Shown: positions 1,248-52,815, counted from the stretch's first letter. The stretch is DNA of 53,626 bases from a virus (IMGVR_UViG_3300030117_006365:1-53626), one strand, 5' to 3'. Notes: a model not told the origin generated them from the letters alone. Translations and numbers: made by a program.

Positions 1248-2594
1248 ATGGGGTTTAAATTAAAATCAGGAAATAAACCAGAACTATCTGGAGGTGTACT
1301 AGCACCTAAAGTAGATGTAACTGTTGTACAGGTAACTACTGCTACACCTATAGTAGAAGGAGAATCTCCATCACCCCTACAAGATCATACACACGCGCAC
1401 AGAGTGAGGCAGGCTAACAGGAAGTATAAAAAGAACATAAAAAAGATAAACAAAGATTTTGCTGAAAAATACTCTAACAACGATAGCGATAATGAGAAAA
1501 TGTCTAGCGCGGAGGATATCGACGCAATAAGAGAGATAAATCAATCATATGCCCCTAAAACACCAGGTGCGTCTCTAGGATTACGTCAAAGACCAGAAGG
1601 TGATTCTGCTTTTGCTAAAACAGCTCCATTAAAACAAGGTGTTGATGCGGGAGAAGGGTATATGCCTGAAGGCGAAGCTGGACCAAGGAATTACAAAGCG
1701 CAACTCGGTGGACCTTATTTAAAAGCGTCTCCTTATAAAGAAGAAGATGACGATGACGATGATAGTAATGAGCCAGATCCGCCAGCGGAACCAGATCCAC
1801 CTGCTGAACCAGATCCACCAGCAGAACCGGATCCAGATCCGGGAGGGGGAGAACCTGGAGAGCAAGAACCATTACCTCCAGGTATAGGTGCTCCACCCGC
1901 AGAAGATGATAAAACTGCTGGACCAGCACAACAAACACCAGAGGAGAAGGCAGATGCGGAAGCTAAAGAACAAGCTGACAGAGCTGAAAGAGAGGCATAT
2001 GTTGATAACTACATGGAGGAGCAATTAGGTATAACACCTGATGAAATTTCTGAAATGAAAGATACTACAGCTGCTAAAGAAGCTAATATGACTGAAACAG
2101 AAAAGATAGAGGAATCTGTGAAATCTGATTCAGAGAAAATGGAAGAAGCTAATCAAGAAAGAATAGAAAAAGAAGCTAAAGAAGCTCAGGAGACAGCTAT
2201 GCCGACTATGCCAATGCCTGGCTCAGAGGATGGTGCAGCTATTGGTACAGCTAGTGGACCATTGACACCTCAACAACAAGCACAGTCAGAAGCAATAAAA
2301 CAACAACAAATTGCTCAGGAAAATAAAGGTGTAACAGATACGCTTAAAAAAACTAGAGACACTGCAGCAAAACAACCTGTTAAAAAACTTATAAAAACTG
2401 GACTTAAAAAAGGATTATTAAAGGCTGGTTTAAAAACAGGTGCAAGATTTATACCAGGCGTAGGACAAATATTAATGGCGAGAGATGCTATTAAATTAGG
2501 TGTTTACGCTTATAAAAATAGAGATGAAATAGCTGGTTGGGCGATGAGACAAAAGAGTAATATGAAGAACAAGCTAAACGAATGGATGGGATAA
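1248..2594 (+). CDS. Low-complexity protein of the MxFK-leader/SP[FLY]K family (putative internal virion protein)
   Basis: 448 aa; MGFKLKSGNKP start, SPLQ/APLK/SPYK motifs, EPDPPA repeats, acidic middle, cationic amphipathic C-terminus. Confidence 0.7.
   Translation: MGFKLKSGNKPELSGGVLAPKVDVTVVQVTTATPIVEGESPSPLQDHTHAHRVRQANRKYKKNIKKINKDFAEKYSNNDSDNEKMSSAEDIDAIREINQSYAPKTPGASLGLRQRPEGDSAFAKTAPLKQGVDAGEGYMPEGEAGPRNYKAQLGGPYLKASPYKEEDDDDDDSNEPDPPAEPDPPAEPDPPAEPDPDPGGGEPGEQEPLPPGIGAPPAEDDKTAGPAQQTPEEKADAEAKEQADRAEREAYVDNYMEEQLGITPDEISEMKDTTAAKEANMTETEKIEESVKSDSEKMEEANQERIEKEAKEAQETAMPTMPMPGSEDGAAIGTASGPLTPQQQAQSEAIKQQQIAQENKGVTDTLKKTRDTAAKQPVKKLIKTGLKKGLLKAGLKTGARFIPGVGQILMARDAIKLGVYAYKNRDEIAGWAMRQKSNMKNKLNEWMG
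1770..1841 (+). repeat. In-frame 18-nt tandem repeat (EPDPPA x3 plus one degenerate unit)
   Basis: gagccagatccgccagcg / gaaccagatccacctgct / gaaccagatccaccagca / gaaccggatccagatccg, varying mainly at synonymous positions. Confidence 0.9.
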
Positions 2595-2636
2595 ACCCAA
2601 ACCAATTAATTAATAACCAATAAAACAAAAACCAAT

Positions 2637-2930
2637 ATGACTTATTTTTATTATAGGAGTACTACGCGTACTTCTGAACCAAATGTATCAGAAAAAACAA
2701 TTTCAGAATGGAAGCATTTATCTGATAAAAAGAACTGGAGAATTACACAACTACCAAATGGATATTACCAAACAGAGGTAAGTGATCCTGACAACGAAGA
2801 CAAATGGGTTGATGTAACTAGAAGAGAGACGTTAGAGGGAGCTGAACAAGCTATAGAAAGCAGCATTGAGCATTTCTCTAAAAAATTAGAATATATTAAA
2901 GGACCAAAAGTAGTTAAAACTTTTAAGTAA
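2637..2930 (+). CDS. Hypothetical protein
   Basis: 97 aa with A-rich leader; stop overlaps the next start (TAATG). Confidence 0.75.
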   Translation: MTYFYYRSTTRTSEPNVSEKTISEWKHLSDKKNWRITQLPNGYYQTEVSDPDNEDKWVDVTRRETLEGAEQAIESSIEHFSKKLEYIKGPKVVKTFK

Positions 2931-3697
2931 TGGGATTTAAACTAGGGAGTGAAAGACGGAAAATGAATATACCTAACGGTAAAACACCTATTGTTAGAAA
3001 AAATCTAGCACCCGGTGTTCATGCTGAAGCTAATAATGATGGGTCAATATTTGTTGATAAAAAAATACCTGTTAATAGCAATAGGTTTAAGAAGTCTATA
3101 GCTCACGAGTTGCAACACATAAAGGATATAGATTCTGGTAAAGCTGACTACGGTGACGAATGGGTTGAGTGGGAAGGTAATATATATATCAGAAAAACTA
3201 TTGATGGTAAAAAGTTTATAGATGGCCCAGCGGGTAGATTACCTGAGGGCCATCCAAACCATCCTTGGGAAAAATCAGCTATAGATGCAGAGAGAAAAAA
3301 CGTAAATGTTACCATGGGTGATGGAGGGTTAGAAGCTGGATACGGAGAAGATGGTGAATCACCTTTGAAGTTTTGGAAAAAATTAAAGAAAGCTGCTAAA
3401 TTTGCTGTTCAGAATAATCCTATATCTATGGCTACAAGAGCTATAAAAGGAGATGATGTAATAAGAACAGACGCATTAACTGGAGGTAAAGGTGCTGAAG
3501 GTGAAGTTGCTGAAGAAGGAGGTGATCCACGTGATGGAGACGCTAGAGCTGCGGCTAAAAAGAAGCATGAAGAGATGAGAAATAAACTTTTTGGTGGTGG
3601 CATAGGTGGATTATTTGGCGCTGGATTTGCTTTTCAAAAAATGAAACAAAGAGCAGCAGAAAACGATGGAGACCATGGTGCTGGTGAAATGGTTTAA
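2930..3697 (+). CDS. Putative zincin-like metallopeptidase with MGFKL leader and SPLK-delimited C-terminal extension
   Basis: HELQH (HExxH) at 3104-3118, downstream HPWE as a likely third-ligand region; ESPLK at 3356-3370 followed by FWKKLKKAAKF. Confidence 0.65.
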   Translation: MGFKLGSERRKMNIPNGKTPIVRKNLAPGVHAEANNDGSIFVDKKIPVNSNRFKKSIAHELQHIKDIDSGKADYGDEWVEWEGNIYIRKTIDGKKFIDGPAGRLPEGHPNHPWEKSAIDAERKNVNVTMGDGGLEAGYGEDGESPLKFWKKLKKAAKFAVQNNPISMATRAIKGDDVIRTDALTGGKGAEGEVAEEGGDPRDGDARAAAKKKHEEMRNKLFGGGIGGLFGAGFAFQKMKQRAAENDGDHGAGEMV

Positions 3698-3752
3698 ATA
3701 CACTACATAATAGGTGATAATACCTATAACAATTTAATTAAATAAAATACAT

Positions 3753-5565: not shown

Positions 5566-5584
5566 TTACTATTTCTAAAAAACA

Positions 5585-5600
5585 TGTAATATCTATTAAA
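5585..5600 (+). promoter_or_regulatory. Copy of recurrent intergenic motif (candidate late promoter)
   Basis: TGTAATATCTATTAAA in the 118-nt gap before ORF 5684. Confidence 0.35.
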
Positions 5601-6001: not shown

Positions 6002-6013
6002 AATATATAAATT

Positions 6014-34419: not shown

Positions 34420-35454
34420 ATGAATAACTATAAACAAGAACGTAGACTACAAGAACCATCTCCTTTTAAGGCTATGCCATGGGGAGCTATTGGTGGTATT
34501 GTTGGTGCTGGTATAAGTTACTTTGGCGCTAAGAAAAGAGCTGACACAGCTAGTGGGTTGCTAAAAGATGCACAGACCGCAATGTCAGACGCTAAGGATG
34601 TTTACGCAACAACCGATATATCTAATCCATTTGAAAACATGAAAAACCAATATCAGGGAATGGAAAACCAATTTGCTGGTATGAAGAATCAATTTGCTGG
34701 AATGGAAAATACTATGGAAGATCTAACAGTCAACCAGCAGCAAGCTCAATTTGAAGCTCAACAATTTCAACAATCACAAGCTAACATAATGGATACAATG
34801 GGTCAAGCGGCTGGTGGATCTGGTATAGCAGCTACAGTTCAAGCTTTAGCACAACAAGGTCAATTGCAAGCTCAACAATCATCAGCTAGTATAGGTCAAC
34901 AAGAATCTCAAAATCAAGCAATGGCCGCTCAACAAGCAGCTCAATTACAACAACTAGAGGCACAAGGAGCAGCTGATGTAGACTTACAACAAAGACAAGG
35001 TGCAGCGGCTGTGGATATGGCTACTAGAAAAGGTGCGTCTGACGTTGATAGAATGAGAGCTCAAGGAAAACAAGTTGAACAACAAAGACAACTAGATTTA
35101 AATGCTACAATGTTAGGTATGGCACAATCAGAGGTCGCAGCGTATCAACAACAAGCTATGCAGGCTGAAGCTCAAAAAACAGAGGCTTTAGGAGGTTTAG
35201 TGGGAGCTGGTGGTAACCTCATAGGTAGTTTATTCTCTGACAGGAGATTAAAAGAAAATATCAAACATATAGGTAGATCACCTAGTGGTATAAAAATATA
35301 TACATTTGAATATAAAAACAAAAACATAGGTGATGGTATATATCAAGGTGTAATGTCCGATGAAATACCAAGAGATGCTGTTGTAAAACACGACAGTGGA
35401 TATGACATGGTAGATTACTCTAAATTGGATGTTGAATTTAAAAATTTAATTTAA
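34420..35454 (+). CDS. Putative DNA-ejection/pilot-like protein with a C-terminal peptidase S74 intramolecular chaperone domain
   Basis: SPFK then Gly-zipper WGAIGGIVGAGISYFG; Gln/Ala coiled coil; second Gly-rich helix; SDRRLKENI...IYTFEY...GVMSDE...VDYSKL. Confidence 0.75.
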   Translation: MNNYKQERRLQEPSPFKAMPWGAIGGIVGAGISYFGAKKRADTASGLLKDAQTAMSDAKDVYATTDISNPFENMKNQYQGMENQFAGMKNQFAGMENTMEDLTVNQQQAQFEAQQFQQSQANIMDTMGQAAGGSGIAATVQALAQQGQLQAQQSSASIGQQESQNQAMAAQQAAQLQQLEAQGAADVDLQQRQGAAAVDMATRKGASDVDRMRAQGKQVEQQRQLDLNATMLGMAQSEVAAYQQQAMQAEAQKTEALGGLVGAGGNLIGSLFSDRRLKENIKHIGRSPSGIKIYTFEYKNKNIGDGIYQGVMSDEIPRDAVVKHDSGYDMVDYSKLDVEFKNLI

Positions 35455-36875
35455 TGGCTTATAAAAATAAAAAAAAATCACCACTAAAAGGAGCTGATCC
35501 AGTATTAGTAAAAGGTGCTTATGAGGCAGCTGGAGGTGGATTATACCAACAGTATGTAGAGCAGTACCATAGAGCTATGATGAATCTAGCTAACCAATTC
35601 CGTTCTTGGGATTTTGGTACTGGTGCTCAAAGAATAATAGACGCTAACGGTAGATTACCTCAGGGAGAAATAAATGGTATTAGAAAGCAGTTGGGAGGTA
35701 AAATGAAAGATGACTACATAAACGGTGATAATGCTAAAAAAGAAGAGTTAACAGCTGAAGTACAGAAGATGCATGAAGAGATGGGACAGTATGCTGATCT
35801 TAGAAAAAACTTAGCAGAAAATTTTAAAAGCAAAAGTCTTAGTCAATCTTTTCTAAGAACACCTCAGGGACAAGAGATGTTGGAGATAATGAAAGACCAA
35901 ACTAGATTAACTAAAAAGAAATGTCCTGATGGTCAAGATGATTGTGATGACAAAGGTAGTTTAGGTGTCATGATGACTGACTGGAAATTAATAAACGATA
36001 CAAACAAAGCTAAGAGAGATATAGAGATGCAAATCCGCCAAATGGAGAAGCTATATCAAGATGGAGCTGTATATCATGATGGCACAGACTTAGATGCACT
36101 ATACGATCAATTAAATGATTTAAACGCATTGATAGAATCAAAGCCAAAAAAATGGACATCTATATCTGAAATGGCTAATTCAATATCATTAATAGATCAA
36201 AGCGCTATAGACTTATTAGCTCAAGCCAGAAACTCAGCTTACCTAAAAGGTAAAGATACTCTTCCAGAAGATAAAACTAAGTTTCAAAGAGATAAAGCTG
36301 GACAGATTGTTAAAGATGTTATTATGAAATCTAGTAATCAAGGTTCTTTAATATATGACGTTATGTTTGGTGACAAGTCATTTTATGATAACATGGTTTC
36401 TCATATTATGGACAATAAATATTCAGACTTTGGATTAACTGAAGAGTATTTAGATTCAATGGGTATATTTGATGATGGTACGATAGATGAACAAGAAGCT
36501 CAACATATTGCAAATGAATTTATAGGTGATGGAGATTTTGAGGAAAATGAAGCGCTACAAAAGGAGATGCAAGAATATTTTGTTCAGCACTTAGAAAACA
36601 ACTATAATCTAGGTAAAGAAGATAGAAGACAATCATATTTAGAGTATGATGAAAGTTTAAATAAAACACAAATTGAAGACAGAGACGCTGATGGTAATTA
36701 TATACCTGACTCACAAAGAGAGGATAACACAACATCAACAGCGACTGATACATCAGAAGAAAACACTGACAACCAAGAAGATACATCGGAAACTGATACA
36801 AGCGACGCTAACATAAATGACGATACGGATGTTAACGACGATGATGAAGAGGACGATGACGACACGCAACAATAA
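35454..36875 (+). CDS. Putative internal virion/ejection protein
   Basis: 473 aa, helical; MAYKNKKKSPLK start; acidic tail; lies between the pilot-like gene and the giant gene. Confidence 0.65.
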   Translation: MAYKNKKKSPLKGADPVLVKGAYEAAGGGLYQQYVEQYHRAMMNLANQFRSWDFGTGAQRIIDANGRLPQGEINGIRKQLGGKMKDDYINGDNAKKEELTAEVQKMHEEMGQYADLRKNLAENFKSKSLSQSFLRTPQGQEMLEIMKDQTRLTKKKCPDGQDDCDDKGSLGVMMTDWKLINDTNKAKRDIEMQIRQMEKLYQDGAVYHDGTDLDALYDQLNDLNALIESKPKKWTSISEMANSISLIDQSAIDLLAQARNSAYLKGKDTLPEDKTKFQRDKAGQIVKDVIMKSSNQGSLIYDVMFGDKSFYDNMVSHIMDNKYSDFGLTEEYLDSMGIFDDGTIDEQEAQHIANEFIGDGDFEENEALQKEMQEYFVQHLENNYNLGKEDRRQSYLEYDESLNKTQIEDRDADGNYIPDSQREDNTTSTATDTSEENTDNQEDTSETDTSDANINDDTDVNDDDEEDDDDTQQ

Positions 36876-36902: not shown

Positions 36903-39900
36903 ATGAGTAAAAAAGAATATTGGGTTGGCGACAACCTATACACAGTCGATGATGAACATGAAGAAGAGTTTCTTCAGAATCACGAGAATGCAAAATTAAA
37001 AGAAGAAGACACTGACGATTATACTGTTGGCGAAGACGGTCAACGATATACAGTAAATAAGAACGATAAAGAAGAGTTCTTAGAAAAATATCCTGAAGCA
37101 AAACTGCTGTCGGGAAACCAATCAAGCTCTACAGAAAGTGCGACTGTAGGGCAATCAACTCAAGCACGGAAAAATCAATACGACGATTCGGAATTTGCTA
37201 CGGAAGGTATTTTATCGGAATCACAACTCAATCTTAATTCACTATCAGATCATAATATAGACTTCGGGCCTATGCCCGAGATAACCACTGACATCACTGG
37301 TGTTAGTGAGGAAAAGGCTCAAAAACTACTTCAAGACAAGTGGATGGAGCATGGTTTCACATTTGAACAAAAAACTGTTGGTTTAAATAGAATAGAGGTT
37401 ACAGCTTTAAACGGAGAAAAAGAGATATTTAATCTAGGTGGTTTTAAAGGCACGCAAGAAGAAGAAGCTAAACGTATGGACGCTTGGATGAGAGAAAGAG
37501 CTCAACACCAAGGAGACAAACTTCAAACTTTACTATCACATGTTAATGTCACTCAAGATCAAACTAGCACTATTAGACCAACTCAAGATAATGCTCAAGA
37601 TCAAATAAATAAATTAAGAGAAGCTTGGGAGTTAGAGGGTATGTCTGACGAAGATGTTTTAGAAGTCTATAACAAGTATATGGACAACAATAGAAAATTT
37701 GTTCAATATGACATGGACGAAGGGTATGGTCCCGGAGCATCTCAGTGGGTTGATGATATGCATAAAAAACAAGACCAACTGGAGAAAGCTGGTTTTAATA
37801 AGTCTGGAAGGGACTTTAAAAAAAATATAGATAATTTAAACACTCTTGTTGAGGGTAGAAAAGATTATAGAAAACAGGAGGCGTTAAAAAAATACGAAGC
37901 TCAAACAGGTGTTAGTATAGACGGTATGTACGATGACGATGGTATAACTGATAAGGGTATCAAAATACTAAATAGTCAAGAATACAAAAATATATACAAT
38001 AGTTTAAAAGTAGATAAGGATAAACAACAGAAGCACCTTGACAAATATTTTTTAAATAGTAAAACTCAAGATTTCTTAGAAGCAAATCTTAAAAAAGAAA
38101 TCGAAAAATTTTCAAACAATCCGTTTGTAAAATCTTCCACTCAAAAAGAATTACTTGAACTAGCTATTGACAAAAAGAACGCTATGAGCGATAAGTTAAC
38201 TGAAAAAGTTAATAAGTTTAACGTTGCTCATGGTGATTTAGAAAATATATACACTGAGTTATCTGACGCTGCTAAATGGTTAAACTCGATAGGTAATGGA
38301 GAGGAAAAACTAGAGGAGATAAAAGCGAAACATGATTTAACAACCGAAGAGGGTGTTAGAGCTGCTCAAGCTGAATTAAATTTATTTCAAGCTCAATATC
38401 AAGAGAAGAGAGATAGGTTTGATTTTCTACAGAAAAAAAGAGGTCAATATGAAAAGTTCGCTAACAATATAGCTAAAGACTTAAACTCTAAAGACGCTTT
38501 AACAGAAGGTCAAATAACAACCGTTATTGACGCCTTAAACAGAAACTACCAACAAGGTACAGTTATGAGTGTTCAACTAATGAATGCTACTATAGATCTA
38601 GCTCAAGGTATAGGTGAGGCTGGTGATATGATACTATCTATACCTAAAGAAATAGTTAAAGCTATAGACAATCCAGCTGTTGATGGTTATATACAAGCTA
38701 ATCCAGGTGTTAATTCAAATACATCTAATAAAGAAAAAGAAAATTGGTGGAGTGAACTAAATGCTAGCATAGATGATTGGCAAAAGGGAACACAACTACT
38801 AATTGAAAAACCAACTAAATTTAATGAGATAAATTCTTTAAGTAGTTTTGGAGAATGGGTTAGTGGTATGGCTGCTGGTCAAGTACCAATACTAGCAACA
38901 ATGGCTGTTAGTGGTGGTGCTTCATTATATATTATGGGTGCTTCAAGCGCTGGTTCTAAATGGAGAGAAATGAACGATGCTAAGGACGAATATAATAGAA
39001 CTGGTGGTTTGTATGGTACTAATCATGCTTGGGGAACTATGTTTGCTAATTCTGTATTTACTGGTACAGCTGAAGCATTATCTGAAAGAATAACACTTGG
39101 TCAAGTTAATAGAATGAAAGGTATACTTGGTTTTGGTGACGTTGCTAAACTAGGTTTTGAAAAAACTCTAAGACAGTCAGTTTTTCAAACAGCTAGATTA
39201 GCCGCGACAGATAGATTAACAGAGGGTGTATCTGAGTCTGTTGCACAATTATCTAGTAATTTTGCTGATGTTGTTTCTGGTAGTAAGAGTTATGCTGATA
39301 TATGGGAAGGTATACCAGAGTCATTTGTTAGTGGAGTTATAATATCACAGGGATTAGCAACTCCTGGTCTAGGTAAAGCGCTATCTGCTCCATTTAGATC
39401 AGCTGATACAAACCAAAGGGTTGGTGAAATGTCTAAGAAGATAAACGAACTAACTAAACGTGCTGGAAGATTTGATATTGATTCTAAAGAAAGAAAAGCT
39501 ATAGAGGCTGAAATCGCTGGACTAGTTGATAAGAGTAATAGTTTAATAGAACAAGATATTAAGAGAGTCAATCTACTAACAGATGGGGAAAAGAAAGCTC
39601 TTATAAACATAGAGAAACAAAACTACGAAGCTAGGAAGAAAGCTGAAGATATAATGTTAGATAAGAAACTAACAGATAAAGAAAAGAAACAACAATTAGC
39701 TGATCTACAAGCTAAGGTTGACATGAGGGCTAAAACCAAAAATGATATAATAGGTAAGTACGAGCCTAACGTTGTTGACGCTAATTACGAAAGAGAGATG
39801 GATTGGTTTAAAAGACAAGCTGAACTATCTAATCAACGTGGTGATATTAAAACGAAAGTAAGAGAAGTTAGTAGAGATGAATTTATAGATCTTAATGCTA

Positions 39901-42900
39901 AACAAGAGGGTGAAAAATCTAAAGCAGCAGTTGATGATGCTATTATGCAAAAACAAGGTGAGATAGAGGGTTTGTTAAATGTACTTAGATCACCACGTAG
40001 AAAAAATCAAAGTGTAGAACAATATAATGAAACTAAAAAAGACGCTTCAAGATTACTAAAACAAGCTAGATCACAAGAAAGTCAAATGATGTCTGTCTTA
40101 GCCCAAGGTAATGATTACGGTATGATGATACCTAAAATTAAAAATGGAAACCTAGTTGGAATGGATGTTGTTATAAATAGAAATGCAGCATTAACTGATG
40201 GTCAACTAAACACTGGTGCTCATGAATTTTTACATGCTCAATTTGCTAACACACTTAAAGGAGATCCTGGTGCTAGAAGTGTATTAGGTCAACAAATGAA
40301 TAAAATTATCAACACTGGTAAAATGCGATTTAAAAACCCTAGTGCTAAAGCTGAGTACGCTAATAGAATATCTATGTACGAAAAGGATAAAAGAGGGGAG
40401 GAGCAGTTTACTATACTATCTGAAATGATGAGAGATGGTAAGGTGTCTATAAATGAAGGAACGACACAGAAGTTTAAAGACTTTTTTAGAAGGTTTAGTA
40501 GAAATTATAACAATAGACCTATAGCTTTTAATGAAACTCAAGATGTATTAGACTTTATAAAAGACTTTGATTATAATATAAGAAAAAACAAACTAAGTCC
40601 TGCTATGGCAGAAATGCTACAGAAAGGAGCTAACGGAAGAATGTTTGAAGACGTCAAAGATAGTAAGACTAGAGATCAAATGAAATCTTTTAATAGAGCT
40701 GTTGATTTAAATAGAAGGCAGAATCCAGATTTAAAAAGAGAATACGATCAGTTTGTTCAAAACAGTGATGGGACTAGAAAATACGAAGACCACAAGATGT
40801 TTACAGACTCTCCAGATTATTATGGGGCTTATTTGAATATAGTTGAAGGGAGAGCTCTAGACGGTTTAATTCAGCATGGTATGACTGAACGTGGTTTACC
40901 ACCAGAAGCTTTAAGAGAGTTTACGAGAATGGCTAAGGAGGAGGTTGGAAGACGTTTCTTAGAAAACTACGACTACGATAAGAATGATAGTTTATTTGGT
41001 TGGTTAACTGGTGTGTCAGGAGGAGCTGGTATGTCTATTATATATAGAGCTAAAGGTGACGTGATGGTTAAATATAAGAAAGATAACAAAGCTGAACTAA
41101 CCTCTATAGATAAACCTGTTAGTGATGATGGTGCTAGACTAAGTGATGTGATACAGGACGAAAGAGATATACTGTTAGAAGAAATAGACAATCAAGATTT
41201 ATCTTTAAATAGAAGAAGAGAAGCTAAGCAGGCTGTTAGAGATCTTAAAGTTAAAGAAATGTTAAATTTCTCTGACAACGCTAGAAAAGCTATTATATTA
41301 AATATCCGTGAAATGGATATTCCATTAGATGGGTTAACATACAAGGGTGTTAAAGATCTTTTAATTAGTGTTGATAAAAAAGCTACATCAGAAAAGAAGA
41401 TTACTCCTAATGGACCTTTATTTCCAGTATTAAATGCTGTTGCTACTGAATTTGGTGTTGACCCATTAAGAATATTAGCTAAGCAAGATTTAAACGGGGA
41501 GCAAAGAGAAGCAGCTCAAAGTTACATACTAGACAAAACAACAAACGAAGATGGTAGCTTTAACACCGATTTATTAGATATGTTACCAGAGGGAGAAACG
41601 AGGAGTGGTGAGGCAACTGGTATAGCAAACACCAAACTAGGTCAATTGTATCAAACAGGTGCTAGGCTAAAAGTTGCTGAAGGTGCTGACAAAGCTTTAG
41701 GTCAAAAGAAAGCTCAAATAAAAAGAAGTAACATATCAAAAGCAGAGTTCTTAGATATATTTGGTATTGAACCAAATGGTAAACTTAGGAAAGGAACTAA
41801 AGCTGACGGTGCTATAAGAGCTTTAGTTGTTGCTACTGCTCAAATAGCTGCTAATCAAGATATGCGAATAAACGCATTAACAAATGGTACTACCAATGAG
41901 GCTGTTGCGGCTAAGTTGGGTGATGGAAGATCTGAGGTTATGCTTAGTAAAAAAATAAAAGCAGAAAACCTAGATGTGTTTCAAGATCGTTGGGCTGAAG
42001 CTATTAGTGGTTTAGATTCTATAAACGTTCACGATTGGAAGTCTATAAAAGGACACTTAGTCAATGTGTATGGTGATGTTATGGAAAACAACGAGCTAAC
42101 AGGTATGGCTAAAGATTGGGCCAAGTGGAGTCAAGAGTTTGATGAGTTGAAGTTACCAGATAACTTTGAAAACGTTAATCACTTAGATTATTACAATAGG
42201 GAAACATATGTAATATCTAAAACAAATGAAGCATTATTAGATACCAGTATATTAAAAATGTTTGCTGGTAATTTTGTTTCACCAGTTAAAAGTGTTACAG
42301 AGTTGTTTAATAGTAGAGACAGGGTTAATAAAGCTAGAGGTTCAATTGTTGATTTTGGAAATCACGCTATAGAGAATTTAAAATGGAAACCTGAAAAACT
42401 AATTAGAACGTTATTTACACAGTACCAAGGCATGTATGCTGGTGCTTATAGAATAGGTGATGGTAGATGGACCGTTAAAAAGGGTAGAGTTGTAGCAGCA
42501 CCATTACCAGAGGGTCAAACAAAACACGGAACAAACAGAGGTCAAGTTTTTACTGGAATAGAAGATTTTATATCTACACTATCTAAGATTAATGGTTTTA
42601 AAAATATAAAAGGAAAAAGTAGAAAACAAATAGGTGAGATGTTCAACGTTGATTTAAAAACGTTTTCTGAAACATCTGATGCAGCTATTAAAGATCAAGA
42701 TTACGAAGGTAGATTAAACCAAGCTAAGGAAGCTAGGGAGGCCGTACAAGACTTAGTGGATTTTTATGTTGATAGAATATACAATGGAGAGGCTCAATTT
42801 GAGGACCTAGCTATGTTAACTAGAATGTTTGGTTCTAATATGAAGTCTCCTATGAAAAGAGCGGCTAATTTAGCTTATATAGCTAAAGGTGCTTCTAGTA

Positions 42901-45900
42901 TACCATCAGATCAAAGAGGTAAAAAGTTAGAATATGAACACATGGTTCCAACTAACTTAAAGATATTACAACTGGTAGACAGTTATGTTAACCAAAGAGG
43001 TGTTGTTGATGGATTTTGGGACGATTATACTGTCGCTGTTATACCTAAGACTATGGATAGAGTTTTAATAGATTCTGGTCTTAGAGATTTCATGCAACTA
43101 GGTTATCAACCTGGTATGGCCTCGTGGAAAAGATACTATAACAACCAAACCTTTGGTAAGAAAGGAATAGTACCAATTAAAAACATACAAACCGGAGAAA
43201 TAGTAGGACAAGAGTTTGTTAAAGCTAGTGATAAGTTTGTTGTCAATAAAAATGCTCAAACAGTTATACAAAATACTAGAGCTGAGGTTATGAAAAGTAA
43301 GTGGGGTTGGAAAAAGAAAAAACCAGAGATAAGAGGTATGTCTGCGTTTGACTTTGATGAAACACTTATTATAGATGGAGATAACTTTATAATGGCTAAC
43401 AACCCTGAGACTGGTGAGACAGAAAGAATAAGCTCTGAGGATTGGCCAACTAGAGGAACTGAATTAATGGATCAAGGTTGGGAGTTTGATTTTGATGATT
43501 TTATAAATGTAAGAGGAGGTGTTGAAGGTCCATTGTTTCAAAAGCTTTTAAATAGAATAGAAAAGTATGGACCAGAAAATAACTTTATATTAACAGCTAG
43601 ACCTCAAGAGTCCGCTATTGCTATACATGGTTGGTTAAAATCTAAAGGTGTTGAAATACCATTAGAAAATATAACTGGATTAGGTGATAGTAAAGGTGAT
43701 TCTAAAGCTGCTTGGATATTAGAGAAGTACAAAGAGGGTTACAACGATATGTATTTTGTTGATGACGCTTTGCCAAACGTGAAGGCTGTTAAGCATGTTA
43801 TGGATCAGTTAGATGTTAAGGGTAGTTCTGTTCAAGTTGGTGTAAGAAAAATTGGTGGTTTACTAGTTGATACCAATACACCTGAAGGTAAAAAGATTTG
43901 GGAAGAAATAAAAAACATACCAACTGTTAGATCTTCAACAACCAACTCTGTTAAGAAGTTTGGTCGATGGCTATTAGACACAGCAACACCTGAGGGCAAA
44001 GCTATACTAAAAGAATTTGAAAGCATACCAACAGTGAGCTCAAGTGAACCAGGTAGAGTTGTTAAAAGAGATAGTGACGCTATGAAAAGCAAATCTCTTA
44101 AAGAAAGAATTATTGACACTCAGTCTATAGATAAAGATTTTAACGACATGTTAGCTAGAACTTCTTTTGTTGGAGCTGACAGAGTTATATCAAAATCAGA
44201 AGCTCAACGTTTGGGTATAGGTAAAGGTAGATATGATTGGTTTGTTCCACCTTCAGCTGAGGATATGAAAGGTTTATTCTATAGGTTTTTAGGTAAAGGG
44301 GAACAGGGTAACGCTGATATGAAGTGGTACAGAGAGTTCTTGTCTGATCCATATGCTAAAGGAATAAAAGCTTGGACGAACTATGTTCAAGGTATGGCTA
44401 ATGATTATACGGCTCTTAGAAAAGCCATGCCAAATGCAGCTAAAGTGTTAAAACAAAACCTACCAAATTCTCCGTTTACAGGCGATGCTGCTATTAGAGT
44501 ATACCTGTGGAATAAAAATGGTATTGAAATACCAGGTTCCTCGCCCCAACAAGTTCAACAAATGGTTGAATTCGTAGAGGCTGATCCTGATTTAGTTGGT
44601 TTTGCTGAAGCCTTAAGTAGAGTTAGTAAGAGACCAGAGGGATATGTACAACCTACAGAAAATTGGGCTGTACAGAGTATAGCGTATGATTTAAAAGAAG
44701 CTGGTTATACTTTAGGCAGAAAAGATTTTTTACATGAGTGGGTTGAAAATAAAAACATTATTTTCTCAGATAAAAATTTAAATAAAATAGAGGCTATATA
44801 CGGTAAGCCAACTAGAACAGCTTTAGAAAACATGCTTCATAGAATGGAGACTGGTGTTAATAGACCTACCGGTAGAGATGGTGCTACTAATAGATTTTTA
44901 AACTGGATAAATGGTTCGGTTGGAGCAGTGATGTTCTTTAATATGAGATCTGCTTTACTACAAACTATATCTACAGTTAACTTTATAAACTGGGAGGATA
45001 ATAACATATTTAGAGCCGCTCAAGCTTTTGCTAATCAACCTCAATTCTGGAGTGATTTCGCGATGATATTTAATTCAGATATGCTTAAACAAAGAAGATC
45101 TGGATTACAAATAGATGTCAACGCTAATGAGCTATCTAATGCTTTTAGAGATGGAAGAAGTAAACCAGAAGCTGTTATTAGATGGTTGTTAGAAAAAGGT
45201 TTTATGCCTACTCAAATAGCTGATAGTTTTGCTATAGCTATGGGTGGTTCTAGTTTTTATAGAAACAGGTTGAATGATTATATAAGAGAGGGTGCTACAC
45301 CAGAGCAAGCGCAGAATCAGGCTTGGTTAGACTTCCAAGAGATAGCTGAAGAAACACAACAGTCTTCTAGACCTGATTTAATATCAGAACAACAAGCTGG
45401 TGTTTTAGGTAGATTAATACTTGCTTGGCAAAACACTCCAATGCAGATGACTAGGTTAACAAAGAAAGCTTTGTCCGATCTTGCTAACGGTAGAGGTAGT
45501 GCTAAAGCTAATATATCAAGAATAATGTATTATGGATTTATTCAAAATATTATATTTGGTATACTACAAAGTGGATTAGCGTTTATTGCTTTTGGTGATG
45601 AAGAGGAAGAAAAGAAAAAGAAAACAGAAAGAGTTTTAAATGGAGCGTTTGACACGTTATTAAGAGGTACTGGGGTTGGTGGTGCTGTTGTAGCAACATT
45701 AAAAAACACTATATTAAAATTCATAGAACAGAGAAAGAAAGGTTGGACGGGTGATCAAACATATACTATTATTGAAGCCATAAACTTATCACCTCCTCTT
45801 GGTAGTAAGTTTAGAAAAATATATAACGCTATACAAACTGACAAGTTTAATAAGGGTGTTAGTGAGAAGTTAAAATATAGAATTGAAAATCCATTTTTAA

Positions 45901-46451
45901 GTATAGTTGGTAATGTTGTTGAAGCATTAACTAACTTCCCAATGGCTAGATTAATAAACAAAGCTAATAACATAGAAGAAGCTATAACTGGTAATCACGA
46001 TCTTTGGCAAAGAATAGCAATGTTAGGTGGTTGGAATAGATGGACTGTTGGTGCTGAAGACGAAGAGCTAGAAGAAGCTAAACAAGAAGTTAAAGATGAA
46101 AAGGCTGAAAAAAAGAAAATAGAAAAAGAAATAAAAAAAGAGGAAGAGAAAAAGAAAAAAGAAGAAGAAAAGAAAGCTGAAGAAGAGAAAAAGAAAAAAG
46201 ATGGAATAAAACAAGTTAGATGCTCTGCTACCAAATCAAACGGTCAAAGATGTAACATGATGGTTGAGACTAAAAACAAAACAGCTAAGTGTGTGTATCA
46301 TAGAGATTTAACTGATGAGGAGAAAAAAGAAGGTACTGATAGGGATAACGATGGAATAAAGGAGTTTAGATGTACAGCAACAAAGAAAAATGGTCAACGT
46401 TGTAAAAATAGAACAGAGAATAAAAACAAGAAATGTTATGCTCATCAATAA
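36903..46451 (+). CDS. Giant multidomain (polyvalent) internal virion protein: zincin motif, HAD-like domain, C-terminal Cys/His repeats
   Basis: 3182 aa; HEFLH at 40221-40235; DFDET (43350), LTAR, K and VDD (43761) HAD motifs; two C-x9-C-x10/12-C-x2-H repeats at the C-terminus; Gly/Ala hydrophobic stretches. Confidence 0.75.
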   Translation: MSKKEYWVGDNLYTVDDEHEEEFLQNHENAKLKEEDTDDYTVGEDGQRYTVNKNDKEEFLEKYPEAKLLSGNQSSSTESATVGQSTQARKNQYDDSEFATEGILSESQLNLNSLSDHNIDFGPMPEITTDITGVSEEKAQKLLQDKWMEHGFTFEQKTVGLNRIEVTALNGEKEIFNLGGFKGTQEEEAKRMDAWMRERAQHQGDKLQTLLSHVNVTQDQTSTIRPTQDNAQDQINKLREAWELEGMSDEDVLEVYNKYMDNNRKFVQYDMDEGYGPGASQWVDDMHKKQDQLEKAGFNKSGRDFKKNIDNLNTLVEGRKDYRKQEALKKYEAQTGVSIDGMYDDDGITDKGIKILNSQEYKNIYNSLKVDKDKQQKHLDKYFLNSKTQDFLEANLKKEIEKFSNNPFVKSSTQKELLELAIDKKNAMSDKLTEKVNKFNVAHGDLENIYTELSDAAKWLNSIGNGEEKLEEIKAKHDLTTEEGVRAAQAELNLFQAQYQEKRDRFDFLQKKRGQYEKFANNIAKDLNSKDALTEGQITTVIDALNRNYQQGTVMSVQLMNATIDLAQGIGEAGDMILSIPKEIVKAIDNPAVDGYIQANPGVNSNTSNKEKENWWSELNASIDDWQKGTQLLIEKPTKFNEINSLSSFGEWVSGMAAGQVPILATMAVSGGASLYIMGASSAGSKWREMNDAKDEYNRTGGLYGTNHAWGTMFANSVFTGTAEALSERITLGQVNRMKGILGFGDVAKLGFEKTLRQSVFQTARLAATDRLTEGVSESVAQLSSNFADVVSGSKSYADIWEGIPESFVSGVIISQGLATPGLGKALSAPFRSADTNQRVGEMSKKINELTKRAGRFDIDSKERKAIEAEIAGLVDKSNSLIEQDIKRVNLLTDGEKKALINIEKQNYEARKKAEDIMLDKKLTDKEKKQQLADLQAKVDMRAKTKNDIIGKYEPNVVDANYEREMDWFKRQAELSNQRGDIKTKVREVSRDEFIDLNAKQEGEKSKAAVDDAIMQKQGEIEGLLNVLRSPRRKNQSVEQYNETKKDASRLLKQARSQESQMMSVLAQGNDYGMMIPKIKNGNLVGMDVVINRNAALTDGQLNTGAHEFLHAQFANTLKGDPGARSVLGQQMNKIINTGKMRFKNPSAKAEYANRISMYEKDKRGEEQFTILSEMMRDGKVSINEGTTQKFKDFFRRFSRNYNNRPIAFNETQDVLDFIKDFDYNIRKNKLSPAMAEMLQKGANGRMFEDVKDSKTRDQMKSFNRAVDLNRRQNPDLKREYDQFVQNSDGTRKYEDHKMFTDSPDYYGAYLNIVEGRALDGLIQHGMTERGLPPEALREFTRMAKEEVGRRFLENYDYDKNDSLFGWLTGVSGGAGMSIIYRAKGDVMVKYKKDNKAELTSIDKPVSDDGARLSDVIQDERDILLEEIDNQDLSLNRRREAKQAVRDLKVKEMLNFSDNARKAIILNIREMDIPLDGLTYKGVKDLLISVDKKATSEKKITPNGPLFPVLNAVATEFGVDPLRILAKQDLNGEQREAAQSYILDKTTNEDGSFNTDLLDMLPEGETRSGEATGIANTKLGQLYQTGARLKVAEGADKALGQKKAQIKRSNISKAEFLDIFGIEPNGKLRKGTKADGAIRALVVATAQIAANQDMRINALTNGTTNEAVAAKLGDGRSEVMLSKKIKAENLDVFQDRWAEAISGLDSINVHDWKSIKGHLVNVYGDVMENNELTGMAKDWAKWSQEFDELKLPDNFENVNHLDYYNRETYVISKTNEALLDTSILKMFAGNFVSPVKSVTELFNSRDRVNKARGSIVDFGNHAIENLKWKPEKLIRTLFTQYQGMYAGAYRIGDGRWTVKKGRVVAAPLPEGQTKHGTNRGQVFTGIEDFISTLSKINGFKNIKGKSRKQIGEMFNVDLKTFSETSDAAIKDQDYEGRLNQAKEAREAVQDLVDFYVDRIYNGEAQFEDLAMLTRMFGSNMKSPMKRAANLAYIAKGASSIPSDQRGKKLEYEHMVPTNLKILQLVDSYVNQRGVVDGFWDDYTVAVIPKTMDRVLIDSGLRDFMQLGYQPGMASWKRYYNNQTFGKKGIVPIKNIQTGEIVGQEFVKASDKFVVNKNAQTVIQNTRAEVMKSKWGWKKKKPEIRGMSAFDFDETLIIDGDNFIMANNPETGETERISSEDWPTRGTELMDQGWEFDFDDFINVRGGVEGPLFQKLLNRIEKYGPENNFILTARPQESAIAIHGWLKSKGVEIPLENITGLGDSKGDSKAAWILEKYKEGYNDMYFVDDALPNVKAVKHVMDQLDVKGSSVQVGVRKIGGLLVDTNTPEGKKIWEEIKNIPTVRSSTTNSVKKFGRWLLDTATPEGKAILKEFESIPTVSSSEPGRVVKRDSDAMKSKSLKERIIDTQSIDKDFNDMLARTSFVGADRVISKSEAQRLGIGKGRYDWFVPPSAEDMKGLFYRFLGKGEQGNADMKWYREFLSDPYAKGIKAWTNYVQGMANDYTALRKAMPNAAKVLKQNLPNSPFTGDAAIRVYLWNKNGIEIPGSSPQQVQQMVEFVEADPDLVGFAEALSRVSKRPEGYVQPTENWAVQSIAYDLKEAGYTLGRKDFLHEWVENKNIIFSDKNLNKIEAIYGKPTRTALENMLHRMETGVNRPTGRDGATNRFLNWINGSVGAVMFFNMRSALLQTISTVNFINWEDNNIFRAAQAFANQPQFWSDFAMIFNSDMLKQRRSGLQIDVNANELSNAFRDGRSKPEAVIRWLLEKGFMPTQIADSFAIAMGGSSFYRNRLNDYIREGATPEQAQNQAWLDFQEIAEETQQSSRPDLISEQQAGVLGRLILAWQNTPMQMTRLTKKALSDLANGRGSAKANISRIMYYGFIQNIIFGILQSGLAFIAFGDEEEEKKKKTERVLNGAFDTLLRGTGVGGAVVATLKNTILKFIEQRKKGWTGDQTYTIIEAINLSPPLGSKFRKIYNAIQTDKFNKGVSEKLKYRIENPFLSIVGNVVEALTNFPMARLINKANNIEEAITGNHDLWQRIAMLGGWNRWTVGAEDEELEEAKQEVKDEKAEKKKIEKEIKKEEEKKKKEEEKKAEEEKKKKDGIKQVRCSATKSNGQRCNMMVETKNKTAKCVYHRDLTDEEKKEGTDRDNDGIKEFRCTATKKNGQRCKNRTENKNKKCYAHQ

Positions 46452-48377: not shown

Positions 48378-48378
48378 T

Positions 48379-48732
48379 ATGAGTTTTAAGTTAAGTGATA
48401 AACAAATGCAAATGCTTATTGAAACACAAACAGCACCACCATCTACTGGTGATTTGTTTCTATGGGGGTATGTAGATCGTAAGGAGAAGAAAGCTAAAAA
48501 GAAAAAAGATAAAGCTGCTGATCTTAGACAGAGAGCTAACGAAGCTGAAGCCGCTGGGAGGTGGCGTAAAGCTCAAAGACTCAGAAAGAGAGCGGAAAGA
48601 AAATCTGCTAAAGGACAAAAAAAGCAAGACCAAGCTAGCAAGATGAAATCAAGACCAGATTATTGGTTGAGAAGAGGTGAGAGCGCTGGAGGAAGTGGTG
48701 GTGGATATGGAGATGATTTTACTAGTGTTTAA
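48379..48732 (+). CDS. Small, highly basic protein with MSFKL leader
   Basis: 117 aa; Lys/Arg/Ala-rich helical core. Confidence 0.65.
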   Translation: MSFKLSDKQMQMLIETQTAPPSTGDLFLWGYVDRKEKKAKKKKDKAADLRQRANEAEAAGRWRKAQRLRKRAERKSAKGQKKQDQASKMKSRPDYWLRRGESAGGSGGGYGDDFTSV

Positions 48733-48747
48733 AATAAATAATTAATT

Positions 48748-49029
48748 ATGAGATCAAGAAAACAAATGACACCTGGCATGAAGAAGTGTAAGGATAAATA
48801 TGGTTCACCGTACAAAGCTGCAGACGCTAACTTAGTTAAGGGGGCTTCTGAAGTTGCTCAAGGTAATATGAATGCGGCGGTTAATCAAAAGACAACAACG
48901 GAAAAACTAGCTGATATAGGGCAACAACAAGTTAATAAATACATGGGAGACGACGCTATCGATTTTGGTAGTTATGGTTACACGTCTAATCAACAGATAC
49001 AAGAAAACAACGAAGCTGCAAGCGTATGA
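48748..49029 (+). CDS. Small protein with RKQMTPG leader and SPYK motif
   Basis: 93 aa; leader matches ORF 51797; SPYKAADANLVKGA matches ORF 35454. Confidence 0.7.
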   Translation: MRSRKQMTPGMKKCKDKYGSPYKAADANLVKGASEVAQGNMNAAVNQKTTTEKLADIGQQQVNKYMGDDAIDFGSYGYTSNQQIQENNEAASV

Positions 49030-50075: not shown

Positions 50076-50077
50076 TT

Positions 50078-50269
50078 ATGGCGTTTAAAATGAAAAGACC
50101 TCCATATAAGGAACACTCTAAATTTGCTCCGTTTTCGGACGAACATAAATACGGTGGGGACGATGACACGGATGGGCCTTATGGCATGCATCCATCAGAC
50201 TGGAAGAGTCCAGAAAGAATAGAAAGAGAAAAAGCAGAAAAAGAAAATAAAAAAGAAGATAATGAATAA
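50078..50269 (+). CDS. Small protein with MAFKMK leader
   Basis: 63 aa; MAFKMKRPPYK; overlaps the next start. Confidence 0.65.
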   Translation: MAFKMKRPPYKEHSKFAPFSDEHKYGGDDDTDGPYGMHPSDWKSPERIEREKAEKENKKEDNE

Positions 50270-51400: not shown

Positions 51401-51795
51401 TGAAACAAATAGACATTTCAAACTACCTTTATATATTACTAATGCTACTAGCCTTTGGTTGTGGTACTGTTATGGGTCAAGATTTTATCAATGGAGATTT
51501 TGATGAGAAGATAGCTAAAGATATTGTTGCTGTAGAGTTTTGGGCTGATTGGAATTCTGCTAATCAATTCAACGATTTAGTTAAATTAAAAGAGTGTGAG
51601 AAGTATAGATTAGATATAATGGCTAAAGCTGATATACAAGCTGAATATAATATAACAGGTATTCCAACTGTTATTATATTTGATAACGGAATAGAGAAAG
51701 CTAGGTTTAATCCTAATATAATGTTTAAATTAGATGCTTGTAAAAAAACAGTGCAACATTCTGTTGACACAATTAAACTAAGTAAATTTCAGTAA
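51397..51795 (+). CDS. Exported thioredoxin-fold protein lacking CxxC
   Basis: VAVEFWADWNSAN in place of WCxxC; YNITGIPTVIIFDNG cis-Pro motif; hydrophobic signal sequence. Confidence 0.75.
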   Translation: MMKQIDISNYLYILLMLLAFGCGTVMGQDFINGDFDEKIAKDIVAVEFWADWNSANQFNDLVKLKECEKYRLDIMAKADIQAEYNITGIPTVIIFDNGIEKARFNPNIMFKLDACKKTVQHSVDTIKLSKFQ

Positions 51796-51796
51796 T

Positions 51797-52015
51797 ATGA
51801 ATTATAGGAAGCAAATGACACCTGGGTTAAAAAAATTAAAAGATGATAGCCCTTTCAAAAACCCACAAAGTGGATTTGGAATGTGGAATCAAGAGAGAAA
51901 ATTAAGAAGACAGGATAGAGTTAGAGACAGAAGAATAGCAAAAGGTAAATTAAGTGTCGACCCAGGTATGCCTCATTTGGGTTATCAAAAAACACCTAGA
52001 GGAGGTTGGGATTAA
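51797..52015 (+). CDS. Small basic protein with RKQMTPG leader and SPFK motif
   Basis: 72 aa; MNYRKQMTPGLKKLKDDSPFK. Confidence 0.7.
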   Translation: MNYRKQMTPGLKKLKDDSPFKNPQSGFGMWNQERKLRRQDRVRDRRIAKGKLSVDPGMPHLGYQKTPRGGWD

Positions 52016-52026
52016 AATAAATTATT

Positions 52027-52815
52027 ATGGCTTATAAAATGAGAAGGGGTAATAGACCGGCTTTTAAGTCGCTTGGAAGTACACCATATAAAGCAGAAGA
52101 ATATCACGAATCAGAACCAACTGAGGTTGTAGAGCCAGATCCAGTTGAGACGCCGGAGCCTGTAGAAGTTGAAACAAACGAACCAACTGAAGATTTTAAC
52201 ATGATGGATAATCCTCCACCAGAAGACAACCAAGATCAAAATGTGCCAGAACCACCTCCAGAAGAAGATCGTATTGAAAACGAAGATGACACAGAGGAGG
52301 TTGTTGAAGAAAAAGAAGAAAAAGAATATGATGATCCAGAATTACAAAAGCTAGCTGATGACGCGAAAGCGTTTGAAGAGGAAGCTTTAAAAGCAGAAGA
52401 AGAAGGTAGTTTGTATCAGGATTTATCACCAGAAGAACAGGCTGCGATTGATGCTAATATGGAAAAATTTGCAACTTGGCCACCTAAGTTTGAAAATCAA
52501 GCAGAAGCTAATGCACATGGTTTTTATATAGACGGTAGTGGTAATGTGTGGCCAGACTCTGCAAAAGGCACCGCCAAGTACGACCCAACAAGTTTAATAC
52601 CAACAGGTGCTGCTTTTAATGCGTTTAAAGGTGGTATAAAATTATTAGGTAAAGGTGGGCAATGGTTAGCTAGAACGTTAAAACCAGCGAAAACTATTGC
52701 AAAAGTTAAAACAAAATTAGATAAATTTAAAGACAAAGATGGAAAATATCCACCAGGATATGATCCATTTCCATATAACACAAACGTTCAAGCTCAATAT
52801 GAGGATGAAAAATAA
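52027..52815 (+). CDS. Low-complexity protein of the MAYK-leader family
   Basis: 262 aa; MAYKMRRGNRPAFKSLGSTPYK, Glu/Pro-rich tract like ORF 31029, cationic amphipathic C-terminal part. Confidence 0.7.
   Translation: MAYKMRRGNRPAFKSLGSTPYKAEEYHESEPTEVVEPDPVETPEPVEVETNEPTEDFNMMDNPPPEDNQDQNVPEPPPEEDRIENEDDTEEVVEEKEEKEYDDPELQKLADDAKAFEEEALKAEEEGSLYQDLSPEEQAAIDANMEKFATWPPKFENQAEANAHGFYIDGSGNVWPDSAKGTAKYDPTSLIPTGAAFNAFKGGIKLLGKGGQWLARTLKPAKTIAKVKTKLDKFKDKDGKYPPGYDPFPYNTNVQAQYEDEK

Follow-up and report, generated by a model that had tools for sequence, protein, structure and literature searches.

Introduction

Encapsulin cargo-loading peptides are short terminal peptides, placed at either terminus, that load unrelated cargo into an HK97-fold shell. 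In bacteriophage T4 the capsid-targeting sequence (CTS), MKTYQEFIAE, is cleaved after Glu, and the internal-protein genes of the T-even phages are polymorphic. The CTS-tagged internal proteins of T4 are trimmed by the prohead protease gp21, as stated in PMC9958956. In phage P22, a 20-residue N-terminal leader of gp7 is described as being removed by a host protease before assembly (PMC4992974, citing Conlin et al. 1992, oligopeptidase A). Zincin-like MPTase domains, of which 12 clades are listed, have been predicted to process the phage polyvalent proteins in which they occur (Iyer et al. 2017, PMC5512222). Beyond a few model phages, sequence alone cannot tell which proteins travel in the particle and enter the cell with the DNA. 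Here we analyse a 53,626-nucleotide stretch of viral DNA (IMGVR_UViG_3300030117_006365:1-53626, called the window below), in which dissimilar open reading frames (ORFs, named by their first nucleotide) begin with a shared leader made of a start tag and a Ser-Pro-x-Lys (SPxK) boundary. We propose, with somewhat less than even confidence, that this leader is a two-part N-terminal code on late proteins, combining a virion-address tag with a trimming site.

The window is a complete record with all long ORFs on the + strand, and it represents the structural, late part of the genome of an uncultured podophage with 33-40% G+C. Among its products are GroEL/GroES, the portal, capsid and tail proteins, a large terminase and a scaffold-like protein. 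A four-gene cluster precedes the gene for a giant protein of 3182 amino acids (aa), after which come a number of small genes. The capsid and portal share 35-51% identity with their counterparts in the environmental podovirus MW202828, the Maribacter phage Panino, Flavobacterium elemo phages and the Cellulophaga phage phi38:1, and the phage, whose portal is P22-like, belongs to a clade of marine flavobacterial podophages. A search of IMG/VR with the giant protein gave 22 loci, and six of those contigs were compared whole; together with the window they form the clade set of seven genomes and 401 ORFs. Four cultured or named relatives, MW202828, Panino, elemoA and phi38:1, served as outgroup (360 ORFs). 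Translated searches (tblastn) were run against ten genomes, namely six of the clade, including the closest relative G021, and these four isolates. ORFs were called by a simple greedy rule without a gene finder, scans with PHROGs and Pfam covered 41 of 48 window proteins, and the "structural protein" labels quoted for relatives are GenBank annotation lines.

Results

A two-part leader at the N-termini of late proteins

The first part of the leader is the start tag M-[AG]-[FY]-K-[LM]-[KRG], often continued as G-[FWY]-[ST]-[PAG]-F-[TK]-K, and the second is an S/T-P-[LFMY]-K boundary located up to about 30 residues downstream of it. Ten of the 49 ORFs in the window are tagged, and beyond the leader the tagged ORFs resemble neither each other nor ORFs of other genomes. 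The two parts can occur singly: ORF 48379 has the start tag alone, and ORF 34420 has little of the tag. The initial annotation had reported related basic leaders on 11 ORFs. All 11 starts were read again as given, and all 13 motif coordinates convert to the residues named, for example SPLQ at residue 42 and SPYK at residue 161 of ORF 1248 (nucleotides 1371 and 1728), SPLK at residue 144 of ORF 2930 (3359), SPFK at residue 14 of ORF 34420 (34459) and TPYK at residue 19 of ORF 52027 (52081). The relatedness itself holds for the first five to eight residues and for SPxK, but the stretch before SPxK varies in sequence and in length, from 3 to about 30 residues.

The enrichment of the motif over a shuffled background, which the same annotation had anticipated, was confirmed. 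Among 48 chosen + strand proteins of the window, SP[FLY]K has 6 matches, whereas within-protein shuffles average 0.39 (standard deviation 0.68, maximum 4), and none of 200 shuffles reached 6. The wider pattern [STAP]P[FLY]K occurs 10 times against a mean of 1.58 (maximum 6; 0/200 shuffles reach 10), and six of these ten matches fall within the first 20 residues. SP[FLY]K is absent from GroEL, terminase, portal and capsid, as had been noted before, and a looser match, APFK, lies in virion protein 18642. Over the seven clade genomes, [ST]P[FLY]K has 21 matches in the first 30 residues of the ORFs, or 1.75 per 1000 residues, as compared with 8 matches in the 111,022 residues elsewhere (0.072 per 1000), so that N-termini are about 24 times denser in the motif; 300 shuffles within the N-termini averaged 1.03 matches and never exceeded 6. 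The motif is found at 1.68 per 1000 residues in positions 1-10 and at 0.02 past position 400. No N-terminal [ST]P[FLY]K was found in the 360 ORFs of the four outgroup relatives.

Fifty-five distinct SPxK sites have Leu (20), Phe (17), Met (12) or Tyr (6) at position 3, never Lys or Arg, with Gly, Lys and Ser enriched upstream and no consensus downstream. The motif Ser is encoded by both TCN and AGC codons, and inspection by eye, made without a motif finder, revealed no shared DNA cassette (promoter or 5' region) before the tagged genes; because the Ser codons are mixed and the upstream DNA is unlike, the motif is conserved at the protein level. No hydrophobic stretch of the Sec or lipoprotein type precedes SPxK in the leaders as inspected without a predictor.

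Outside the clade set, a degenerate DNA pattern located at least 120 exact MAFKMKGF sites in IMG/VR. Eighty of these loci were examined, and all 93 sites in them start open frames of at least 40 aa; 76 loci share genes with the window, 43 have the zincin gene described below and 37 have GroEL. The tag is thus a hallmark of one large marine phage group and not of phages in general. The start-tag pattern gave 257 matches, which lie at residue 2 in 215 cases, at residues 3-12 in 28 and later in 14. This large set (the MAFKMKGF loci, the 55 SPxK sites and the 257 pattern matches) was found largely via the tag itself. One IMG/VR locus, L108, holds a dense array of tagged genes, with four exact MAFKMKGF starts within about 5 kb on ORFs of 105-246 aa. 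A 42-43-aa frame starting MPFKSK..MKACY lies inside the giant-gene coordinates of MW202828 (9593-9724, L001) and elemoA (3582-3710, L005), two genomes that are otherwise without the tag. A search with the first 40 residues of ORF 31029 against an index of 5.8 billion proteins returned only the protein itself, the leader being too short and variable for a word index, and the literature library searched held no prior description of the strings AFKMKG, GFKMKG, MAFKM or MGFKL.

Within the clade, tagged ORFs are confined to the structural strand (18/150, against 0/83 on the other strand, in G012, G011 and G009; Fisher p = 4e-4, shared ancestry ignored), and the tag sits on hypervariable ORFs. The prediction that motif-bearing ORFs would vary between relatives while the motif stays was upheld by tblastn among clade genomes. 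ORFs 1248, 31029, 32483, 48379, 48748, 50078, 51797 and 52027 have zero matches in five clade genomes, and 1248, 51797 and 52027 have none in any of the ten genomes compared, G021 included; portal, capsid and terminase are 55-91% identical in the same clade genomes. Other clade genomes bear different tagged ORFs at the same three places, which are near the zincin and GroEL genes, before the giant gene and after an envelope-gene cassette. That the tagged genes are late and linked to the virion is supported by their place on the structural strand, by the PHROG matches of ORF 34420 and by the fusion of the zincin to homologues of the giant protein, as judged from gene comparison.

A candidate mini-zincin that carries the tag

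ORF 2930 encodes a candidate metalloprotease, referred to here as the zincin. Its tag MGFKLG (nucleotides 2930-2947) is followed by a variable linker, by HELQH at residues 59-63 (nucleotides 3104-3118) and by EGHPNHPWE, after which come an acidic linker, SPLK (nucleotides 3359-3370) and a cationic and Gly-rich tail. Marine metagenomes contain 66 homologues of near equal length, none with a Pfam domain. In all 34 aligned homologues, which were found by the zincin sequence, M1, F3, K4, L5 and G6 are fully conserved, just like H59, E60 and H63 of the HExxH motif, and the linker after the tag varies by about 20 residues in length; HExxH is also invariant in 19/19 long zincin forms. With a hidden Markov model of the core only, 66 zincin ORFs were recovered in the loci, of which 60 start with the tag, 2 have it at an inner Met, 3 are broken and 1 is without it.

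An AlphaFold2 (AF2) model of the zincin (predicted local distance difference test, pLDDT, 75.9) combines a sheet of three strands with two helices, one bearing HExxH and the second an invariant Glu, and with a beta-hairpin insert. E114 and E121, which are invariant or nearly so, lie on helix 112-125 of this metal-free model. Residues 1-9 are unstructured, with pLDDT below 50, as would be expected if the tag were a linear motif and not part of the fold. In a model of the full-length protein a helix starts at the Pro of SPLK, at low pLDDT, and the SPLK joint and the tag both have values below 50, so that their placement relative to the active-site cleft is uninformative. A predicted complex of zincin residues 1-128 with residues 1-40 of ORF 52027 and Zn, run without controls, obtained a score of 0.02 and a mark of 0.32 and speaks neither for nor against binding.

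The best Foldseek matches are minigluzincins, with selecase at a non-significant E of 0.65, and a profile search of the PDB gave a best E of 1.2, which is likewise not significant. ORF 2930 has no Pfam match and matches only phrog_16532, which bears a function-less label, and the zincin part of one homologue matches the phrog_87 metallo-protease (3.3e-6). The nearest Atlas clusters with a family, SprT-like, M78 and DUF3920, lie at 0.89-0.91 and are leads only.

In 15 of the 19 long forms, [ED]-SP-x-K stands at the joint between the zincin and the cationic tail; beyond the zincin, these fifteen forms have an acidic linker, which leads to a conserved [ED]-SP-x-K-(W)-F, and then a cationic helix and a tail rich in Gly. 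Seven long forms end in an SDRRLK / S74-type domain, as does ORF 34420. The terminal S74-type self-cleaving chaperone domain that ORF 34420 shares with P0070, P0073, P0077 and P0080-P0082 would make the zincin tail and the ejection protein members of one module family. The C-termini of some proteins also resemble the tag. P0100 and P0136, both with an N-terminal zincin, end in ...FKMSGYG..., and P0138, whose zincin is likewise N-terminal, ends in the related ...PFTMPGFGKRK. The neighbour of the zincin in G012 (52605-53351, that is, 742-1488 of L035) ends ...RGYKMNSPLKNYKK...

The SPxK boundary in the ejection cluster

Downstream of SPFK, the protein of ORF 34420 has first a hydrophobic helix rich in Gly, then a Q/A-rich region and, at its C-terminus, an SDRRLK / S74-like domain. 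It matches phrog_6121, virion structural protein (2.5e-19), and phrog_4287, DNA ejection protein (3.2e-9), and has a weak match to Peptidase_S74 (0.0036). An alignment of 19 family members lacks the N-terminal extension in 14 rows, comprising 10 clade orthologues and 4 isolate proteins, and these leaderless proteins begin directly with the Gly-rich hydrophobic helix, which in the window comes after SPFK. The isolate proteins come from phi38:1, elemoA and Panino, all labelled as structural, and from MW202828. Five lineages of the family bear an extension ending in SP[FLN]K. Ejection proteins with a short extension ending in SP[LF]K before a hydrophobic helix also occur in L177, L180, L184 and L185, which belong to distant phages with few start tags in the flanking regions.

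The neighbouring ORF 35454 behaves similarly: 9 of 12 aligned rows are leaderless orthologues, and those of L009 and L028 begin with M-GAD..LVQGA., aligned right after the SPLK of the window protein. Since no alternative start codon follows SPLK in the window, the leader of ORF 35454 is translated. This ORF had no tblastn match in the phage collection, and a search for related loci in IMG/VR was empty. The leaderless orthologues are the strongest argument that SPxK may end a removable or optional segment. Together with the 15 long zincin joints, they also place SPxK at a module boundary, in line with the observation of the initial annotation that the motif often sits where composition switches.

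The zincin is free in the window and fused to giant proteins elsewhere

A profile search with the zincin domain among 1.84 billion representatives yielded 431 proteins at E <= 1e-3, and in many of these, 2100-4000 aa in length, the zincin makes up the final ~110 residues. Two of these giant fused proteins, P0125 and P0131, were compared with the giant protein of the window. Residues 2397-3054 of the latter align with residues 1922-2577 of P0131 at 45% identity (E 3e-168), and the alignment stops where the linker of P0131 to its zincin (residues 2617-2721) begins; P0125 is 36% identical (E 3e-99). P0131 also bears a Zeta-toxin/AAA_33-type kinase domain. In elemoA and phi38:1 the giant gene has the label "structural protein", and tblastn of the window giant against these two genomes gave 23% identity over residues ~641-952, in a match that may lie in the giant gene. 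A head protein of the MuF / SPP1-gp7 type before the fused zincin was considered and dropped, having no Pfam support.

Within 10 kb on either side of the giant gene, none of 193 ORFs is tagged in the 13 IMG/VR loci in which the zincin is fused to the giant, as compared with 21/837 ORFs in 52 related loci without the fusion and 37/311 in the 22 loci of the window clade (fused loci versus window clade, Fisher p = 1.2e-8, shared ancestry ignored). The simplest reading of these gene arrangements would be that a zincin covalently part of the giant protein does not need a tag, whereas a free zincin goes along with a tag on itself and on other free proteins.

Other tagged proteins and neighbouring genes

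The coordinates of the features are collected in Table 1. In ORF 1248, for which no Pfam or PHROG family was found, APLK (residue 126) and SPYK (residue 161) are followed by an acidic PAEPDP-type repeat and a basic amphipathic C-terminal helix. ORFs 1248-2594, 31029-32471 and 52027-52815 are laid out alike: the basic leader gives way to a long, acidic repeat of Pro and Glu (PEPVEVDT, PAEPDP), and the C-terminus is a basic amphipathic helix. The overall isoelectric point (pI) of their products is 4.4-4.9. The positional orthologue of ORF 31029 in L007/L027 starts MGFKLRSGNSSGFKMMGSSASPYK, and that of ORF 48379 in G021 starts MAFKLTNEQ. ORF 32483 has no family in Pfam or PHROGs. An orthologue of ORF 50078 was found by tblastn in G021 only among the ten genomes (84% over residues 1-44).

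The 97-aa protein encoded at 2637 is 72-78% identical in five clade genomes, which makes it more conserved than the capsid protein, and tblastn found no match in the four isolates. It is present in 30 of the 80 MAFKMKGF loci examined, in many relatives beside GroEL and not beside the zincin, and has a weak, sub-threshold match to Pfam Y_Y_Y (0.0028). It may act as a partner protein and could be the receptor of the tag.

Two further genes lie outside this set. A second GroES-like gene at 9368-9958, just 5' of the terminase gene (phrog_13932 co-chaperonin GroES, 5.5e-15, residues 1-104), exists besides the GroEL/GroES pair at 3753-5565 and is conserved as far as phi38:1. Immediately 3' of the giant gene, 46491-46670 encodes a 59-aa Cys-rich protein (CPCWKC...CPRF) that is 72-88% identical in the clade and has no tblastn match in the four named relatives.

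Table 1 Tagged ORFs of the window and genes beside them
Coordinates	Strand	Product	Size (aa)	pI	N-terminus and other features
1248..2594	+	Tagged protein	448	4.8	Starts MGFKLKSGNKP
2637..2930	+	Untagged protein, highly conserved in the clade	97		Stop overlaps start of zincin gene (TAATG)
2930..3697	+	Tagged candidate mini-zincin	255		Tag MGFKLG, HELQH, SPLK
31029..32471	+	Tagged acidic protein	480		Leader MARKKFNLRSGNKSSFKLMG..SPLAK, then PEPVEVDT repeats
32483..34408	+	Tagged acidic protein	641		Leader MAFKQRSSFK..SAFKQMG..SPFGK
34420..35454	+	Ejection-type protein	344		17-residue extension ending SPFK
35454..36875	+	Protein encoded just 5' of giant gene	473		MAYKNKKKSPLK, then GADPVLVKGAY...
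36903..46451	+	Untagged giant, putative internal protein (context gene)	3182
48379..48732	+	Small basic protein	117	10.3	Start tag only (MSFKL), without SPxK
48748..49029	+	Small tagged protein	93		MRSRKQMTPG..GSPYK, then AADANLVKGA, resembling ORF 35454
50078..50269	+	Small tagged protein	63		MAFKMKRPPYK
51797..52015	+	Small basic tagged protein	72	10.8	MNYRKQMTPG..DSPFK
52027..52815	+	Tagged acidic protein	262		MAYKMRRGNRPAFKSLGSTPYK, acidic Pro/Glu-rich region, basic amphipathic C-terminal helix

Discussion

Our results suggest a mechanism in which the start tag is a short linear address that would bring separately made polypeptides to an internal, ejected virion protein complex built around the giant protein. 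The addressed polypeptides would include the free mini-zincin, some proteins of the ejection cluster and small proteins that differ from genome to genome, several of which are very basic or very acidic. S/T-P-[FLYM]-K would end the leader and most likely be the trimming site, with a cut at or just after the Lys exposing the mature N-terminus. The tagged HExxH mini-zincin would be the most likely enzyme, and its own leader may be removed too. We infer encapsidation, cleavage and the identity of the protease from the sequences. A broader version, which on balance we think unlikely, is a plug-in cargo system, in which any small gene acquiring the 6-13-residue tag would be recruited to the ejected complex and the free mini-zincin, recruited in the same way but still joined covalently to the giant protein in sister lineages, would trim the cargo at SPxK. 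If true, this would be the first case of a tailed phage using a metalloprotease to mature its virion cargo, and it would provide a sequence rule for predicting injected proteins from metagenomes.

Two claims of the initial annotation were narrowed by these data. That the leader is a packaging signal agrees with a shared N-terminal element on unrelated late proteins of the structural strand, but the leader is not required in the two mostly leaderless families of the ejection cluster. That some of the ORFs are polyproteins is borne out for the fused zincin forms only, and no evidence for it was found at the internal APLK and SPYK of ORF 1248.

Several observations weigh against an address that is trimmed off. 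Because most orthologues are leaderless, including isolate proteins labelled as structural, the leader would be dispensable for packaging two proteins of the ejection cluster. The shortest extensions before SPxK, of 3-4 residues (MSSSPFK, MSKSSPLK), are hard to call an address. The assignment of ORF 2930 as a zincin is that of a candidate, resting on HExxH and on model topology, with non-significant curated matches. The link between zincin and tag holds at the level of clades only, and many other genes are equally clade-specific. The phage collection searched holds no cultured member of the clade. Two further points, the tag-like C-termini and the helices that follow SPxK, are taken up with the alternatives that they favour.

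The alternative that deserves most attention, though we regard it as improbable, is docking without cleavage, in which the tag, SPxK or both stay on the mature proteins as linear motifs for a shared binding partner, in the manner of encapsulin cargo-loading peptides. The giant protein, the portal, the capsid interior and the 2637 protein are examples of what that hub could be, and the zincin would be an injected effector or a self-processing domain instead of the leader peptidase. A tag that never varies on the zincin and yet lacks structure in the model fits this view, as do the very short extensions; the alternation of fused and free zincin is explained equally well, and the tag-like motifs at the C-termini of P0100, P0136, P0138 and the G012 neighbour suit binding at either end better than they suit an N-terminal propeptide. 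Orthologues that start exactly after SPxK argue against it, since the motif there behaves as an add-on to the mature domain, as does the lack of a consensus downstream of SPxK. Considerably less probable is the idea that no addressing or processing function is shared at all, SPxK being a helix N-cap or membrane-interface motif (Ser cap, Pro N1, Lys snorkelling) and the MAFK starts having arisen by repeated duplication or recombination of one small-gene family. The structural half of this idea derives from helices that start at the motif, namely at the Pro of SPLK in the low-confidence zincin model and, in the ejection proteins of distant phages, as the Gly-rich hydrophobic helix directly after SP[LF]K, and the paralogy half from segments that ORFs 48748, 35454 and 51797 share beyond the motif. 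Acidic, disordered or basic sequence follows SPxK just as often, however, and a general helix cap would not be expected to show a 24-fold N-terminal bias. Differing Ser codons, the lack of a common cassette at the DNA level and a tag that is invariant on the zincin despite the variable linker length also speak against this idea.

A signal for turnover or expression seems very unlikely. The start tag would then be a ClpX-type N-terminal degron, or an A/U-rich enhancer of translation starts in a host without Shine-Dalgarno pairing. ClpX N-motifs follow the pattern hydrophobic-hydrophobic-basic-hydrophobic, which the first residues fit, and the codons are A/T-rich (TTT AAA ATG AAA). The most highly expressed late genes (capsid, portal, scaffold) nevertheless lack the tag, wobble positions vary while the residues are fixed (the third base of the Gly codon is G in 24 cases, T in 28, C in 27 and A in 14), and SPxK, its behaviour as a boundary and the fused or free state of the zincin are left unexplained. 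We give hardly any credence to SPKK-like DNA binding, by which basic leaders would hold the packaged AT-rich genome via S/T-P-basic-basic turns: the leaders are indeed basic and the G+C content is low, but position 3 is hydrophobic or Tyr at all 55 sites, and several tagged proteins are strongly acidic overall.

If the tag is an address, as we tentatively propose, it labels dozens of fast-changing candidate injected proteins in abundant uncultured marine flavobacterial phages, and it could serve to load foreign proteins into such particles. The fused zincin and the free, tagged one constitute a natural experiment that makes the hypothesis directly testable. Even if the tag is only a docking or structural motif, it is a clean marker of a phage lineage.

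Comparison with known systems

The encapsulin cargo-loading peptides have no sequence likeness to the leaders described here. The minigluzincins selecase, abylysin and jannalysin (4qhi, 4jiu, 4jix), metallopeptidases of about 110 residues, resemble the zincin in having HExxH and a downstream helix with Glu, but the matches are non-significant (E 0.65-2.9, template modelling score 0.30-0.41) and in the window protein about 35 residues between the two helices form a beta-hairpin insert.

The likeness to the T4 CTS lies in a short N-terminal peptide on otherwise unrelated late proteins, followed by a processing-type site, which is putative here; in T4, the tagged proteins are non-essential and the protease belongs to the same assembly. 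The sequences differ, with MAFKMKG.../SPxK in the present group and a motif that ends in Lys and not in Glu, and T4 is a myophage whereas the window comes from a podophage with a P22-like portal. No protease of the gp21, HK97 or ClpP type was found by PHROGs or Pfam among the window proteins scanned. The candidate enzyme is instead an HExxH zincin of about 100 residues, in a system known from sequence alone.

As in the polyvalent proteins, a small HExxH domain ends the giant multidomain homologues P0125 and P0131, the latter with its kinase domain, but the zincin of the window is a free gene with an invariant tag that is common to other free proteins. The resemblance to P22 gp7 consists of an ejection protein of a short-tailed phage with an N-terminal extension, 17 residues long in ORF 34420 and known here from genes, and the likening of ORF 34420 to gp7 goes solely through its PHROG match as a DNA ejection protein. 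Oligopeptidase A is itself a zinc metallopeptidase. Unlike P22, in which one protein is processed by a host enzyme, the phages studied here have about ten proteins per genome that share the extension, and they encode their own tagged candidate zincin.

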